Sequence record: PQ356294.1
Reading direction: 5' to 3' (one strand)
Length of the DNA: 64,000 nt
Source of the DNA: Escherichia phage Ec_YwIITB1
The notes under the pieces were generated by a model that ran no database searches, was not told where the DNA came from, and saw only the letters and a list, made by a program, of their open reading frames with translations. A program made the translations under genes and the position numbers. This document shows positions 15,504 through 64,000 of this stretch, piece after piece (within the stretch, counting starts at the first letter, position 1; each line of letters begins with the position of its first letter).

Positions 15504-15738
15504 AATAAACCCTTACCTTAAATAGATAAGGGTATTTATTATTTTCAAGTATTGTAAAACATTTGATGCAATCGCTTATATTGCCGAATCGTTTGGTCAG
15601 AAAAAGAATCTTTTTAGTAGGACGAGAATAAGTTCCTACACAAGTGGTCATATTAGAGTCGGTAGGACTTCCTTTAATAAAAAGTTTCCAAACCTTACCA
15701 CCATTTAACTTTTCAGTATAAATTAATTCGGTTTTCAT
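15478..15738 (-). CDS. hypothetical protein
   Basis: 86 aa ORF overlapping the gene 49 start. Confidence 0.45.
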   Translation of the reverse strand: MKTELIYTEKLNGGKVWKLFIKGSPTDSNMTTCVGTYSRPTKKILFLTKRFGNISDCIKCFTILENNKYPYLFKVRVYYVIDWQII

Positions 15739-16202
15739 TAAAACGCTCGGTCAGAAAAAGAATTTTGAGTTTCAAGCCATTCAATATATTCTGCTGCAGC
15801 TTGCATTAAATTACCTTCATAGCCATCATTATTTTCTTGTGCAGCTAATTTAGCTAATGCATATGAAATACGTTCACCTTGAAAATCAGCTTTAGGCTTA
15901 TGAAGAGCTTGATCAACTCTCTCTACAACTTCTTCAATTTCGCCATTTTCCACTGATTCAATATTCCACAAGCACCAATACGTAATTGGCTTATCATAGA
16001 TGTTAATAATCTTTCCATCAGAAAGTTCAATTTCAATAATTCCAGTATCAGGTTCTATATCATCTTCGCATTCTTTTGCAAGTTCACGAACTTTAAAGAC
16101 AGTACCTGCACTAAGTTCCGGCCAATAATTACACAGCCCTTTATCAGCACGATTAATTCTAAACCACTTATCTACTGTAATCATGTCCCATCTCCATATC
16201 AA
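15738..16202 (-). CDS. hypothetical protein (pin position in T4 order)
   Basis: 154 aa ORF; name not assigned. Confidence 0.55.
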   Translation of the reverse strand: MIWRWDMITVDKWFRINRADKGLCNYWPELSAGTVFKVRELAKECEDDIEPDTGIIEIELSDGKIINIYDKPITYWCLWNIESVENGEIEEVVERVDQALHKPKADFQGERISYALAKLAAQENNDGYEGNLMQAAAEYIEWLETQNSFSDRAF

Positions 16203-19913: not shown

Positions 19914-20173
19914 TAGTTTAGTGCATTTAGTGCATTGTTCAGTTTAGAACGTTGCTTCGTAAGATTTTTGACTTTTTCTTGAGCTTTTTCTAGCATCTTT
20001 TCAGCTTCTAACACTTCATTAGTTGCTTTAACGAGTTCATCATCTACTGCCTTGATGGACTTCTCAATCGCATCCGCATGCCATTTTTCAACAGGTTTAA
20101 GACTCGGATTTTCAACAGGAAGAAAATTCGCTTTATTGAATTTCCATGCATCTTCATTACCTGAACTATACAT
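19913..20173 (-). CDS. hypothetical coiled-coil protein
   Basis: 86 aa ORF. Confidence 0.5.
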   Translation of the reverse strand: MYSSGNEDAWKFNKANFLPVENPSLKPVEKWHADAIEKSIKAVDDELVKATNEVLEAEKMLEKAQEKVKNLTKQRSKLNNALNALN

Positions 20174-20211
20174 CCAAAATTTAGGATCGTTTGATGAGTA
20201 ATTGGATAAAT

Positions 20212-20877
20212 TTAAGTTATCTTGTACTTCATGCTTTTTCTCTTGAACGGAACTTCATCCTTTCTCAAAAAATCGTATTTAAATGAAACGATCATATCAA
20301 GTTCATACGTTGTTGTATGTTCCCAATTTCGCTCAAAATGAGGTAAAATCTTAGACTGAACTGCGGCAACAACATCCATATACTTAAATGCTTCTGTCAA
20401 CTGTGATTTAAGGCATTCGCAAATTGAAAGAGAATTTTTTGTATTAGGTTTAAAGCTAATTCGCGCAGTTCTGCTATTTTCTTTTAATGGTCTTACTTCC
20501 ATCTGAAGAGTATAACCATCAAATTTCAGATTCTTTAAGTTAATATCAGAACCTTTTAATCGACTCGCAATTGATAAAATTTGTTTTAATTGTTTACGGA
20601 ATAGAGCAATAAATCTCCATTCAATACGATAATGATTTGGATTGAAAAATCCAGATGATAAATCGACCTTACTTTGGCCGACACCTTGAACAAATAGAGG
20701 ATTTTTATAATTAATGGTTTTACAGAAATCAGTGAGCTGCTCACGAGCAGTCATTTGTGTAATATATCCTGCTTGGTTAAAATTGCGCACCCATTCACTG
20801 CTGTTCAGATGTTTAAAGGCATGAATGGAACAATTAACTTTACCAAGGTCTAAATTATTTTGACACAAAAACGTCAT
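20212..20877 (-). CDS. hypothetical protein, paralog family member, preceded by a coupled leader ORF
   Basis: 221 aa; ATG overlaps the leader stop as ATGA. Confidence 0.55.
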   Translation of the reverse strand: MTFLCQNNLDLGKVNCSIHAFKHLNSSEWVRNFNQAGYITQMTAREQLTDFCKTINYKNPLFVQGVGQSKVDLSSGFFNPNHYRIEWRFIALFRKQLKQILSIASRLKGSDINLKNLKFDGYTLQMEVRPLKENSRTARISFKPNTKNSLSICECLKSQLTEAFKYMDVVAAVQSKILPHFERNWEHTTTYELDMIVSFKYDFLRKDEVPFKRKSMKYKIT

Positions 20878-20939
20878 AGCATCACGAGTATAGCTGGCAT
20901 TACGAGAACCATATCTTCAATTTGAGAACGAGTTTTCAT
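20874..20939 (-). CDS. 21-codon leader ORF (MKTRSQIEDMVLVMPAILVML)
   Basis: Strong AAGGAATA RBS and ATG at 20937-20939; stop overlaps the next ATG. Confidence 0.35.
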   Translation of the reverse strand: MKTRSQIEDMVLVMPAILVML

Positions 20940-34862: not shown

Positions 34863-35336
34863 TTATTTGAATGATTTGACGTACTGAATAGAGCCTTTGC
34901 TATTCACGAAAGCGATTTTACCATTTTTGTTATACATGGTAGCAGTACGCTGATAACCATAAGTTTGTTTACCAGATTGATAACCAACTAATGCGAAATT
35001 ATCTTCACCCATTTTATTCTGCTTAGCGCGGATACGTTCATGACCGTGTGCCATAAGAACCTTAGCGTCGCCAGTTGCAATGGATCTACGAGTTTTTTCA
35101 TCTTCAACTGTATTAACAAAATCGTCAAATGAATCAAATTTAGCATGAGATTTATTATACAGTTTTCCATCTACTGCATAATTATATCCCTGTACATCCA
35201 TCTCAACTTCTGTACCATCATCCAATACAGCAGTGATTTTTTGACCTTTTTTAAATTTCAAAAGATCAGTAAAAGATTCAGCGATAATTTGAGAATTAAT
35301 AGCTGCTTCAGTGATAAATTCTTGATATGTTTTCAT
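34863..35336 (-). CDS. internal-protein-like capsid-targeted protein
   Basis: N-terminus MKTYQEFITE-AA matches the T4 capsid targeting sequence. Confidence 0.6.
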   Translation of the reverse strand: MKTYQEFITEAAINSQIIAESFTDLLKFKKGQKITAVLDDGTEVEMDVQGYNYAVDGKLYNKSHAKFDSFDDFVNTVEDEKTRRSIATGDAKVLMAHGHERIRAKQNKMGEDNFALVGYQSGKQTYGYQRTATMYNKNGKIAFVNSKGSIQYVKSFK

Positions 35337-36808: not shown

Positions 36809-37278
36809 TCAGTGATAAAATTATTTAAATTTTGAGCATATTTCTTTTCATCAAAAATCTTTTGTTGCCTGCGCATCCGCCATGGCATTTCAATGAACAT
36901 GTACCATATTCCTGATAATATTGATGCTGTAAAAATATTAACAAGTATGATTAAAAGAATCCAATCTTCCGTTCTGCCTACTGGACTTTCTATAAAAAAG
37001 CAAAATACAAATGATGACACAGGAAAACTAATGATATACCACAGAATCATAATCTTATCTGTGAACCATTCAGCATTCGTTAACTTAGCACGGCCATTAT
37101 GAATACACACGAATTTATCATCTGTTACAGTAGATGGCTTAACTGCTTGATATCCCATTCTAAACTCCCTAATTAATCGTTTCTTTGTATCTTCAGAACA
37201 GCCGCTCCAGTCAACTCTATCAACTGAAATGCCATCGTCCCCATCATCTAAATCATACCAGTGAGTTTTTAAAATCAT
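36790..37278 (-). CDS. membrane protein (tail ...ECRKLK)
   Basis: 162 aa; two TM helices; translationally coupled. Confidence 0.6.
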   Translation of the reverse strand: MILKTHWYDLDDGDDGISVDRVDWSGCSEDTKKRLIREFRMGYQAVKPSTVTDDKFVCIHNGRAKLTNAEWFTDKIMILWYIISFPVSSFVFCFFIESPVGRTEDWILLIILVNIFTASILSGIWYMFIEMPWRMRRQQKIFDEKKYAQNLNNFITECRKLK

Positions 37279-37592
37279 TTAATTTTCCTACAATCACTCA
37301 CAAACTCTTCCATTGATTCTTTTTCAATATAAGACATATAGCTATTATATTCCTTTAATTGTATTTTGTAATCCTTTTTTCTTTGCCAATTTATTTTAAA
37401 ATTATCATAATGAAAATATAACATGGTACCAAAGAATGAAAATAATGAAATCGCTATAGTATAATGAAGTTCACTCCAAACTTCTATTATATCTACTATA
37501 CCGCTGACGTTACTGCGGATGTTTAAAATAAAACAGTCAATTAACAATCCAATAAAAACTACCCGCAAGAGCTGCAGCCAATGCCACAGCAA
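37275..37592 (-). CDS. membrane protein (tail ...DCRKIK)
   Basis: 105 aa; two N-terminal TM helices; stop overlaps the next ATG. Confidence 0.6.
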   Translation of the reverse strand: MLWHWLQLLRVVFIGLLIDCFILNIRSNVSGIVDIIEVWSELHYTIAISLFSFFGTMLYFHYDNFKINWQRKKDYKIQLKEYNSYMSYIEKESMEEFVSDCRKIK

Positions 37593-37631
37593 AAATTGAA
37601 AATGACTCAGAAAAAGAATATTTGACTTTAT

Positions 37632-38045
37632 TTAGTTTTGGCTTTTGCATCGTGATTCCTTAACAAATTTCATAATTTCATCAAATTCATACATATCTAG
37701 CTTAAGCTGGTGTTCCTTTTTAATCTTTTTACACTGAGCTTTCCAATCACGTACGCGTTTACGATAATGTCTTCCTTGATACCAGTATCCTACCCAATTT
37801 ACAGGTACTAATAAAAGCGGAACTACCAATGGAAGAATTAGTGTTGCTCCAAATATTACACCAGATTCAATATCAGTCATAACGTCTATAACCATTCCAG
37901 CAATCACCAAAATCACAAATGATACAGCTACCACAGGACCTATTAACACATCAGTAGAAATTAGCTGACGCTTTGGTTCATACTTCACGGGTTTACTTGG
38001 AAGGTATAGTGATGGCTTTGACATATTCTCTACATTCCTTAACAA
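37632..38045 (-). CDS. membrane protein
   Basis: 137 aa; TM hairpin; basic C-terminal helix. Confidence 0.6.
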   Translation of the reverse strand: MLRNVENMSKPSLYLPSKPVKYEPKRQLISTDVLIGPVVAVSFVILVIAGMVIDVMTDIESGVIFGATLILPLVVPLLLVPVNWVGYWYQGRHYRKRVRDWKAQCKKIKKEHQLKLDMYEFDEIMKFVKESRCKSQN

Positions 38046-41916: not shown

Positions 41917-41992
41917 TGGTCGAGGCAGTAGGGATCGAACCTACGACCTAGGACTTAGAAGGTCCTTGCTCTTCCTTCTGAGCTATGCCTCG
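41917..41992 (-). tRNA. tRNA-Arg (anticodon UCU)
   Basis: Manual cloverleaf: acceptor CGAGGCA/UGCCUCG, loop CUUCUAA, T-loop UUCGAUC, CCA encoded. Confidence 0.8.
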
Positions 41993-42047
41993 AACCCATG
42001 ACTACGAGAATCACAATCTCGAGTTCTACCAACTGAACTACGGCCAC
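41993..42047 (-). pseudogene. 3'-truncated tRNA-His-like gene (GUG anticodon arm intact) fused to the tRNA-Arg 5' end
   Basis: Acceptor 5' strand, D-arm and CGAGA-UUGUGAU-UCUCG anticodon arm present; T-arm 3' half and acceptor 3' strand absent. Confidence 0.5.
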
Positions 42048-42141
42048 ATTAATACCTACTCCAACAATCAAGATGTCTTCACACGAAATTAAGAGAAGAG
42101 TGATCAGTTCAACCCCTATAATCGCGTCAAGTAGATATTAA

Positions 42142-59664: not shown

Positions 59665-60323
59665 TGAGTTTACTTAATAATAAAGCGGGAGTTATTTCCC
59701 GCTTAGCAGATTTTCTTGGTTTTAGAACTAAGAAAAATGATATTTCGGTTATGAATAATCAGCCAGTAGGTGCTGTAACAATTTCACAAATAGCAAAAGG
59801 GTTTTATGACCCAAATGTAGAATCTGCTATTAATGATGTTAGAAATATGGCAGAGCAACAGGTTGGAGCTGTATTAGTTAATATAAGTGGCGTATCTCCT
59901 ACTGGCGTGCAGCAAACAGACTATTGGTCATTTGAAGGAACTGTCAATGATACTTCAGCCAAACCAGGTGACCCGGTTATTGTTAACATGTTTGGCATTC
60001 CTGTTAAAGCTACTAATGGAATGACTTCAATCGAATTTACCAGTGCCGTTAGAACAGCTCTACAGGAAATGGTTGCAAAATTTATTGCAATTGATTCATT
60101 TGAAGACCATCCTACCATAGGAAATAAAATACAAGTTAAGTATTTAGATAACCAAGAACATATCTTAGAACAATACTCTGATAAAGGAATTACTTTCAAA
60201 CAAGAAATAATTTCTCCTTCTAAACCTGGGTATGGAACTTGGCAATTATTAGGTGCGCAAACTGTTACGCTAGATAGTCACACACAACCTACAGTATTTT
60301 ATTATTTTGAGAGAATAGCATGA
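59664..60323 (+). CDS. 11: baseplate wedge protein gp11
   Basis: Start at ATG 59664 (MSLLNNK, 219 aa), overlapping the gene 10 stop as TAATG. Confidence 0.9.
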
Positions 60324-61870
60324 GTAACAATACATATCAGCACGTATCAAATGAATCAAAATATGTTAAATTCGATCCTACTGGATCGAATTTTCCTGAC
60401 ACTGTCACGACAGTGCAGTCTGCATTATCAAAAATAAGTAATATCGGCGTAAATGGTATTCCTGATGCAACTATGGAAGTTAAAGGAATAGCAATGATTG
60501 CGTCAGAACAAGAGGTTTTAGATGGAACTAATAACTCTAAAATCGTTACACCAGCTACATTAGCAACAAGATTATTGTATCCAAATGCTACTGAAACTAA
60601 ATATGGTTTAACGCGCTATTCAACAAATGAAGAAACTTTAGAAGGCTCAGATAATAATTCGTCGATAACTCCACAAAAATTGAAATACCATACTGACGAT
60701 GTATTCCAAAACAGGTATTCATCTGAATCATCAAATGGAGTTATTAAAATATCATCTACACCTGCGGCTTTGGCTGGTGTAGATGATACTACGGCAATGA
60801 CTCCATTAAAAACCCAAAAACTTGCAATAAAATTAATTTCACAAATAGCTCCTTCAGAAGACACAGCATCAGAATCTGTTAGAGGTGTAGTTCAGTTATC
60901 AACTGTCGCTCAAACTCGTCAAGGAACTCTTCGCGAAGGATATGCAATTTCCCCATATACCTTTATGAATTCCGTTGCAACACAAGAATATAAGGGTGTT
61001 ATACGTTTAGGAACGCAGTCGGAAATTAACAGTAATTTGGGAGATGTTGCAGTAACAGGCGAAACATTAAATGGTCGAGGAGCTACTGGTTCTATGCGCG
61101 GTGTAGTAAAATTAACGACGCAAGCCGGTATTGCCCCTGAAGGTGATAGCTCTGGAGCATTAGCGTGGAACGCAGATGTAATTAATACTCGTGGTGGACA
61201 AACTATTAATGGTTCTTTAAATTTAGACCATCTTACAGCAAATGGAATTTGGTCACGCGGTGGAATGTGGAAAAATGGCGATCAACCTGTTGCCACTGAA
61301 AGATATGCGTCCGAAAGGGTTCCAGTTGGAACTATTATGATGTTTGCGGGTGATTCAGCACCTCCAGGTTGGATTATGTGTCACGGTGGAACCGTGTCAG
61401 GTGACCAATTTCCTGATTATAGAAACGTAGTTGGATCAAGATTTGGTGGTGATTGGAATAATCCTGGTATTCCTGATATGCGAGGTCTTTTCGTCAGAGG
61501 AGCCGGTACTGGCGGTCATATTTTAAATCAACGAGGACAAGATGGTTATGGAAAGGATAGACTTGGTGTAGGATGTGACGGAATGCATGTTGGTGGTGTC
61601 CAGGCACAACAAATGTCATACCATAAACACGCCGGTGGTTGGGGAGAACATAACAGAAGTGAAGGCCCATTTGGCGCGTCAGTTTATCAAGGATATCTTG
61701 GAACTAGAAAATATGCCGACTGGGATAATGCTTCATACTTCACTAATGATGGATTTGAATTAGGTGGACCGAGAGATGCTCATGGTACACTTAATCGTGA
61801 AGGATTAATTGGTTATGAAACTAGACCATGGAATATATCATTAAACTATATTATTAAAATTCATTACTAA
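60320..61870 (+). CDS. 12: short tail fiber gp12
   Basis: 516 aa. Confidence 0.9.
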
Positions 61871-61879
61871 GGATTACAA

Positions 61880-63091
61880 ATGATTGAATTAAAAGAGTTA
61901 CCTTTTGTTGATAGCGCTCCTGACGAAGGTCAAGAGCGTATTTCATGGATTAAAAATGGTGAAGAAATATTAGGAGCTAGTACTAAGTATGGAAATGATG
62001 GATCAATGAATAGACCTATTGTTTCCGTGTTTAAAAATGTCGAAGTTCTTGATGAAAATGTGGGAATTCTTAAAACTGCCATTGAAACATCACAGAAAGA
62101 TATTAAAACAATTCAAGGAGTTTTAGATGTATCAGGAGATATAGAAGCGCTATCACAGATCAGCGTTAATAAAAATGATATATCAAGTTTAAAGACGCTC
62201 ACAAGTGAACATACTGATATATTAAATGGTACAAATACTACGGTTGATAATATTCTTTCTGATATTGGTCCATTTAATTCGCAAGCAAATTCAGTTTATA
62301 GAACGATTAGAAATGATTTGCTGTGGATTAAAAGGGAACTAGGACAATATGCTGGACAAGATATTAATGGTCTTCCTGTTGTAGGAAATCCTAGCACAGG
62401 AATGAAGCATCGCATTATTAATAATACTGATGTCATCACTTCACAAGGAATACGTTTAAGCGAATTAGAAACAAAATTTATTGAATCTGATGTAGGTTCG
62501 CTTACAATCGAAGTAGGAAATCTTAGACAGGAATTAGGACAAAGACCGCCTTCATTTAGTGAAAGTATATATTCGCGTGTGCATAATTTAGATCAATCAC
62601 AAATTAATCTTAATTCCGAAATTAAATCTATCAAAACTTCTATTGGATATCCAGGAAATACTTCAATAATCACAGATGTTAACACTAATACACGAGAAAT
62701 TTCAGCTTTAACTGATGAGCTAAATAAAAGCGGAGGTGTTAAACAGCGATTAACTGTCATTGAAACATCAATTGGCTCAGATGATATTCCTTCTAGTATT
62801 AAAGGACAAATCAAAAATCACACAACTTCAATCGAAGCTCTAAATGGAATCGTCGGTGAAAACACTTCGTCTGGTTTAAGAGCGAATGTTTCATGGTTAA
62901 ATCAAATTGTTGGAACTGACTCCAGCGGAGGACAACCGTCTCCTTCTGGATCTCTATTAAACCGAGTTTCAGTTGAAGGAGAAGTTTCTGTTTTTAGGCT
63001 GAATAATGTTCAAAATCTACAAGTAGAGATAGGAAATAATAGAACAATTCAGGAATTAAAGGGCAAGTTATTGAGCTTACTTCCTTTATAA
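61880..63091 (+). CDS. wac: fibritin (wac), N-terminal 403 codons ending at a premature in-frame stop
   Basis: Coiled-coil whisker protein; ORF stops at 63089-63091, well before the encoded C-terminal foldon. Confidence 0.8.
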   Translation: MIELKELPFVDSAPDEGQERISWIKNGEEILGASTKYGNDGSMNRPIVSVFKNVEVLDENVGILKTAIETSQKDIKTIQGVLDVSGDIEALSQISVNKNDISSLKTLTSEHTDILNGTNTTVDNILSDIGPFNSQANSVYRTIRNDLLWIKRELGQYAGQDINGLPVVGNPSTGMKHRIINNTDVITSQGIRLSELETKFIESDVGSLTIEVGNLRQELGQRPPSFSESIYSRVHNLDQSQINLNSEIKSIKTSIGYPGNTSIITDVNTNTREISALTDELNKSGGVKQRLTVIETSIGSDDIPSSIKGQIKNHTTSIEALNGIVGENTSSGLRANVSWLNQIVGTDSSGGQPSPSGSLLNRVSVEGEVSVFRLNNVQNLQVEIGNNRTIQELKGKLLSLLPL

Positions 63092-63349
63092 ATGGAAATA
63101 ATCCTGACGGATCAACTGTTGAAGAACGCGGATTAACCAATTCTGTAAAAACGAACGAAACCAACATTGCAGCACACACACAGGAAGTAAGTAGTAATAC
63201 AGCCAAGAAGTAGTATATCTTCATTACAGGCGGATGTTCAGACTTTACAGGAAGCAGGTTATATTCCTGAAGCTCCAAAAGATGGCCAAGCTTACGTTCG
63301 TAAAGACGGCGAATGGGTATTACTTTCTACCTTTTTATCACCAGCATAA
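63046..63349 (+). pseudogene. wac: out-of-frame wac C-terminal segment including the foldon
   Basis: Frame -1 encodes IKGQVIELTSFINGNNPDGSTVEERGLTNS...; the original frame resumes and encodes ...[34 protein letters not shown]. Confidence 0.6.
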
Positions 63350-63352
63350 CAT

Positions 63353-63368
63353 GGGGCCGCAAGGCCCC
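63353..63368 (+). other. GC hairpin with GCAA tetraloop between wac and 13
   Basis: ggggcc-gcaa-ggcccc; no clear U tract. Confidence 0.45.
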
Positions 63369-63380
63369 AAAGGATTTTAA

Positions 63381-64000
<620 letters not shown>

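Follow-up and report, generated by a model that had tools for sequence, protein, structure and literature searches.

A broken fibritin gene (wac) in the sequence record of the T4-like Escherichia phage Ec_YwIITB1

The fibritin gene wac of Escherichia phage Ec_YwIITB1 (PQ356294.1), as written in the 64,000-nt stretch of DNA analysed here (the window), stops before its C-terminal foldon, which raises the question of whether this phage has lost its whiskers or whether the sequence record is at fault. The segment belongs to a Tequatrovirus (T4-like) genome with 96-97% identity over 25 kb to phages UGKSEcP2, PBM-1 and sb1. The gene lies between gene 12 (short tail fibre) and gene 13 (neck), an order kept in the relatives, and this position, together with fibritin alignments and Pfam matches, bears out the earlier note's naming of it as wac. 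Its surroundings are as follows.

60320-61870: gene 12 (gp12), an exact match to Logan contigs
63353-63368, + strand: GC hairpin GGGGCC-GCAA-GGCCCC between wac and gene 13, identical in relatives
63381-64000, + strand: start of gene 13 (neck protein), intact, with 99.5% identity to UGKSEcP2 gp13 over 206 aa

The gp12 sequence is identical on two Logan contigs, and the contig that reaches wac carries an ordinary RB32-type wac. In phage SA20RB the annotation marks the homologous site as a rho-independent terminator; the hairpin itself did not appear in the output of a simple terminator scan. Within wac, residues 1-100 align as nearly identical to those of four fibritins, and the N-terminal neck-attachment domain is present, the corresponding fibritin domain of about 50 aa being the one that attaches the fibre to the neck (PMC3797505). 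The first 1081 nt contain no indel and no stop, and comparison with 11 alleles revealed 8 private substitutions there, most of them synonymous. Over its whole length (61880-63349) the gene is a fine mosaic of alleles, in which the first two thirds are sb1-like, 62975-63210 resembles RB32/SHFML-11 with some T4-type states, and the sequence from 63216 matches sb1-type alleles exactly for 106 nt.

The coding sequence as recorded falls into three parts.

61880-63091, + strand: wac ORF as written by frame translation, 403 codons plus TAA (63089-91), with the N-terminal two thirds intact and sb1-like
63043-63214, + strand: out-of-phase fibritin-coding stretch, open between TAG 63040-42 and TAG 63212-14, start mod 3 = 1
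63257-63349, + strand: back in the original wac frame, the foldon (63257-63337) followed by SPA and a TAA stop at 63347-49

Three-frame translation reproduced the premature stop at 63089-63091 after 403 codons that had been described from the letters of the sequence. It likewise recovered the fibritin-like continuation in another frame (63043-63214) and the return of the original frame, which is open again from 63191, after a TAA at 63188-90, encodes the foldon and ends at 63349. Against Pfam Fibritin_C the shifted piece scores 54.5 bits and the foldon piece 42.8 bits, while the conceptually repaired 489-aa protein reaches 107 bits. Since both out-of-phase pieces match this family, their fibritin-like reading is not due to chance, and the foldon piece also matches the fibritin structures 1AA0/1AVY. 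Altogether, about 165-170 nt of wac coding sequence (63047 to 63211) lie off-frame. From the wac start as written the foldon is unreachable, with four wac-frame stops upstream of it and no ATG in its frame. The 403-aa product has no hit to Fibritin_C (PF07921), and its last 14 residues (IQELKGKLLSLLPL) are unrelated to fibritin. Two hallmarks of a fibritin are accordingly missing as written, namely a Fibritin_C foldon fused in frame to the shaft and a continuous segmented coiled coil at a fixed spacing from the foldon. As the earlier note had held, the recorded wac product ends early and lacks its trimerisation foldon.

One way to rescue a full-length fibritin from this arrangement would be programmed recoding, with a -1 slip followed by a +1 slip at AAG_UAG (63209-14). 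The following element is present.

63058-63064, + strand: formal X_XXY_YYZ heptamer A_AAG_GGC in the as-written frame, where a -1 slip would enter the fibritin frame

The heptamer is in the right frame and lies between the stop codons of both frames, and the second switch would occur at an in-frame UAG, as at prfB-type +1 sites. However, the 86 nt that follow (63065-63150) fold with a minimum free energy of -11.2 kcal/mol, where shuffled sequences average -10.8 (z = -0.15), indicating no stimulatory structure, and by codon-anticodon rules a tRNA-Lys on AAG should be unable to re-pair on AGU for the +1 slip. Two efficient events in series would also be required, and the two-frame arrangement occurs in none of roughly 500-840 relatives. 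Recoding was rejected for want of a downstream structure and of conservation and is considered highly improbable, and the heptamer is judged incidental, since the conserved IKG motif is itself encoded by AAA GGN. Equally improbable is a split architecture, in which a shortened 403-aa fibritin would be accompanied by a separately translated foldon peptide. The foldon frame is indeed open from 63191 to 63349, but it has no ATG start, and the + strand ORFs listed over 63200-63350 are all in other frames. Moreover, the shortened product carries its unrelated 14-residue tail with no Fibritin_C hit, and such an arrangement is conserved neither in 844 records nor in the best 120 listed fibritin representatives.

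Two other readings, between which the earlier note did not choose, carry most of the weight. According to the first, to which we give slightly better than even confidence, the wac lesions are an assembly or consensus artefact of the sequence record, the technical origin being inferred. Consensus or assembly trouble may have arisen where the gene is most divergent, perhaps through mixed alleles or reference-guided reconstruction; two of five length changes (+5 nt at 63045-49 and +7 nt at 63191-63212) would then have put about 165 nt out of phase, and the phage itself would make a normal fibritin of about 485 aa. According to the second, held at somewhat under even confidence, the gene is a genuine and recent loss-of-function allele that yields only a 403-aa fragment without foldon, hence no trimer and a whiskerless phage. 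On this account the cluster of lesions would stem from a single complex event, for instance repair that was error-prone or switched templates as a divergent RB32/T4-type patch recombined into an sb1-type gene, and the phage would survive because wac is non-essential.

The lesions were mapped by alignment to 16 alleles combined with a diagonal-offset analysis, which together uncovered five private register changes within 240 nt (62973-63212), in the order -3, +3, +5, +6 and +1. The sites, with one further private change, are these.

62973-63003, + strand: two in-frame changes, one codon lost at about 62973 (VIEGEV to VEGEV) and one gained at about 62994-63001 (SVLNNN to SVFRLNN); diagonal offsets +2, +5, -1, +2
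63043-63051, + strand: site 1, five extra bases (CAATT/AATTC) at 63045-49 relative to every allele compared, moving the wac frame to start mod 3 = 1
63173-63182, + strand: (CA)5 run produced by a private GT-to-CA double change, which replaces a core Val of the last coiled-coil segment with His
63191-63196, + strand: six extra bases AGTAGT, read as SS in the frame of the shifted stretch and lying within the last coiled-coil segment; offset -3 to -9
63207-63212, + strand: site 2, one extra base (CCAAGAAGTAGT versus T4-type CCAAAGGTAGT), returning to the wac frame; offset -9 to -10

These positions modify the earlier account of a 1-nt loss followed by a 1-nt gain, which is correct modulo 3 only, as the actual changes relative to the relatives are +5 nt and +7 nt; the second site, formerly put at 63218-63222, lies some 8-10 nt further upstream, at about 63207-12. 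All five length changes fall inside the mosaic patch or at its edges. Site 1 reads RB32-type AGA ACA (RT) and then sb1-type (A)AT TCA (NS), its extra bases recreating the sb1-type string AACAATTC beside the RB32-type AGAACA, and site 2 coincides with the switch to sb1-identical sequence. This placement speaks for the loss-of-function reading, in which the lesions would mark the joints of a recombinant patch. A more specific version, given clearly less than even confidence, holds that the sequence is correct and that a natural or laboratory Tequatrovirus lost its whiskers through one complex templated event, in which homeologous recombination between sb1-type and RB32/T4-type alleles left small out-of-register duplications at the junctions.

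The stretch homologous to 62940-63260 measures 321 nt here and 309 nt in 39 of 39 full-length relatives, a sample drawn evenly across 511 matching records at 69-83% identity. Such strict conservation of length in the relatives favours an artefact, as does the concentration of five register changes in 240 nt when the other 1081 nt of wac have none. Within the patch, indels are about as numerous as private substitutions, which is unlike natural divergence; this excess of length changes over almost no private substitutions again favours an artefact and is hard to reconcile with a real allele undergoing normal decay. A consensus drawn 50:50 from RB32-type and T4-type reads was also considered for the patch and is not needed, as the T4-type matches fall at isolated synonymous sites and are equally well explained by a sister allele keeping ancestral states. 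The sizes of the changes do not point to a simple cause, since insertions of 5, 6 and 2 nt across the affected genes are mostly not homopolymer slips and fit no simple platform error profile, which counts against an artefact. Because simple platform error does not explain these sizes, a mixed-allele or reference-guided consensus would be needed.

Restoring the frame does not restore an ordinary fibritin. The earlier note had named, as what would refute its reading, indel errors at both sites whose correction restores a single continuous ORF of about 487 codons; the ORF does become continuous on repair, but it counts 489 codons and its product is abnormal, so that the repair is no clean rescue. 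Aligned to T4 fibritin E (1AA0), the repaired C-terminus gives E = 2e-48 and shows two 2-residue insertions. The heptad phase of the 489-aa protein moves from 4 to 6 at the SS insertion, whereas RB32-type and T4 sequences keep one phase, and the upstream -3/+3 pair removes a core Ile. The repaired fibritin is still abnormal in its length (489 aa), its heptad shift at SS and its core Val-to-His change, and this persistence favours an artefact. The lesions therefore seem better read as out-of-frame insertions in an allele of canonical length than as a pair of 1-nt errors in one that is longer and functional.

The same features appear to be unique to this record. In all 844 of 844 matching phage records the segment corresponding to the repaired C-terminus is a single in-frame piece, indicating that wac is kept under selection in nature and weighing against a genuine knockout. 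A database of 5.8 billion proteins was searched with the full-length query, and the best 120 cluster representatives listed served as fibritin relatives; 77 of these 120 are 485 aa long, and the best match shares 89% identity, whereas the C-terminal 157-aa query returned only fragments from the protein database. None of the peptides RTNSG, EVSSNT, SSNTAK, TAKSS, VFRLNN, SVEGEV and AAHTQ occurs in the best 120 listed representatives, nor does either of the two 2-residue insertions of the repaired protein. The 403-aa product had no match in an exact-protein index, and exact-pattern scans of IMG/VR, JGI metagenomes and GTDB genomes did not find the wac allele; a single IMG/VR pattern match lay in an unrelated gene and was rejected as chance. 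A literature search on fibritin, wac and frameshift returned nothing relevant. Junction peptides and frames seen nowhere else favour an artefact, and so does the lack of an independent sighting of the allele in the collections searched, which at the same time tells against a knockout.

The base changes within the shifted stretch bear on the age of the break. Where that stretch aligns without gaps, it differs from the RB32-type allele at 11 sites, 8 of which are third positions of the fibritin frame (p = 0.009), corresponding to position 2 of the frame as written, and counted by codon the differences comprise 9 synonymous and 6 non-synonymous changes. This third-position bias implies a break that is recent or artefactual, and, as far as the pattern of substitutions can tell, wac was until very recently evolving as an intact fibritin gene. 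An old pseudogene was rejected on the same bias and on the first 1081 nt without indel or stop. The retained coding signature leaves the break without evolutionary age, which favours an artefact, although it demonstrates recency only and is compatible with a real mutation as well.

Further frameshifts were sought across the window with UGKSEcP2 ORFs and nucleotide alignments, and two additional genes were found to be affected.

19916-20939, - strand: nrdC.5-like gene of 340 aa, whose reading is broken across three frames by private 2-nt insertions at 20246-47 and at 20904-05 (a GA tandem duplication)
37278-37650, - strand: hypothetical gene of 124 aa near e/nudE, frameshifted by an extra A at 37554 (A5 versus A4)

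The nrdC.5-like gene is intact in about 490 relatives, each of its insertions is unique among about 490 records, and 8 of its 12 private substitutions are at third positions. The extra A in the 124-aa gene is private among 498 records, with flanks that are 100% identical at the protein level. In a leave-one-out comparison restricted to high-identity context, private frameshifts numbered 3 in the window, 0 in UGKSEcP2, 1 in PBM-1 and 1 in pSs-1; this comparison misses the wac lesions, where the comparators differ among themselves. The window therefore carries an excess of private coding frameshifts, clustered as 2+2+1 in three genes. That other private frameshifts exist, with a second gene hit twice, favours an artefact, since a real knockout would have to be accompanied by several independent recent hits.

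Among the relatives, a T-run indel splits a 930-nt gene in PBM-1 (L023, about 19832), a nucleotidyltransferase is split in pSs-1 (L025, 25115-26124), and gp12 is annotated as two CDS in sb1 (L001, 1-1488). The occasional private frameshift occurs in GenBank relatives too, a point against an artefact. Three intergenic 1-nt indels were tested, of which two are common to a few other phages and one is private. As two of the three are shared, the record is not riddled with random homopolymer errors and appears otherwise accurate, again counting against an artefact. An intergenic enrichment of indels had also been considered as proof of a clean record with real frameshifts, an argument weakened by the finding that two of the tested sites are shared polymorphisms and one is private.

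Three other differences from UGKSEcP2 were noted in the window.

41917-42048, - strand: 25-nt deletion at about 41990 that fuses tRNA-Arg and tRNA-His genes
15548-15747: 3' end of the pin (Lon protease inhibitor) region, differing by about 140 nt
34863-35336, - strand: 157-aa ORF just downstream of denV, where UGKSEcP2 annotates a longer, 183-aa 'endonuclease V'

ARAGORN predicts the two tRNA genes to overlap by 17 nt, and at least one of them is probably defective. The arrangement of the pin region differs in pSs-1 and PBM-1 as well, and the difference probably represents natural variation. A disruption of denV relative to UGKSEcP2 was rejected, as a normal 138-aa denV is present beside the separate 157-aa ORF; the difference is one of annotation and allele.

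The disrupted features (wac, the nrdC.5-like gene, the small gene near e and the tRNA junction) are all dispensable in T4. Private frameshifts confined to dispensable genes support the loss-of-function reading, and the all-dispensable pattern, which resembles real mutations filtered by selection, was roughly estimated to have a chance of about one in five under random errors. The window also contains no ambiguous bases, a further point against an artefact. Fibritin is known not to be absolutely essential, long tail fibres attaching slowly in its absence (PMC3004832), and this dispensability is in keeping with a viable knockout. T4-type fibritins fold through the small foldon motif (PMC3797505), so that loss of the foldon would amount to a clean null.

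The consequences differ between the two readings. If the lesions are an artefact, the record needs correction at wac and probably also at the nrdC.5-like gene and the 124-aa gene, and automatic annotation would call a truncated fibritin from it. If the sequence is real, the phage would be a natural whiskerless relative of T4 and a rare case in which error-prone recombination between diverged alleles can be read directly from the sequence; it would also offer a wild-type background for asking what whiskers do. Either way, the finding is an ordinary one, a broken copy of a well-known gene that is most likely a flaw in the record.

Comparison with known systems places the locus in context. Programmed -1/+1 frameshifting, as in dnaX, prfB and the phage tail chaperone G/GT, shares with wac a formal slippery heptamer and a stop codon at the second switch, but in wac both a stimulator and conservation are missing, and +1 re-pairing is implausible. 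Classical T4 wac mutants are laboratory amber and other point mutants, and their whiskerless phenotype has been known since the 1970s. If the sequence is real, the present allele would resemble them as a wac null, although the recorded lesion consists of small indels clustered within the mosaic patch, in a T4 relative that is itself uncharacterised. Such T4 mutants remain viable; their tail fibres attach slowly, and environmental fibre retraction is lost (PMC3004832). T4 fibritin itself (gp wac; PDB 1AA0, 1AVY, 2BSG; Pfam PF07921 Fibritin_C) is likewise encoded between gene 12 and gene 13, and its N-terminal neck-binding region and segmented coiled coil are conserved here, at 89% identity to the closest fibritins of 485 aa, along with an essentially identical foldon sequence. 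Unlike in T4, the last coiled-coil segments are off-frame as written and the foldon is not joined to the protein, and the repaired version departs from T4 fibritin and its relatives in its 489 aa, two 2-residue insertions and heptad break. Compensating-frameshift errors in deposited sequences are pairs of neighbouring indel miscalls that put a short part of a conserved ORF out of frame. The indels seen here are of 5, 6+1 and 2 nt and not single homopolymer miscalls; like such errors, the wac lesions leave a short internal stretch off-frame between correct flanks with its coding signature kept, in a record whose other genes carry private frameshifts as well.
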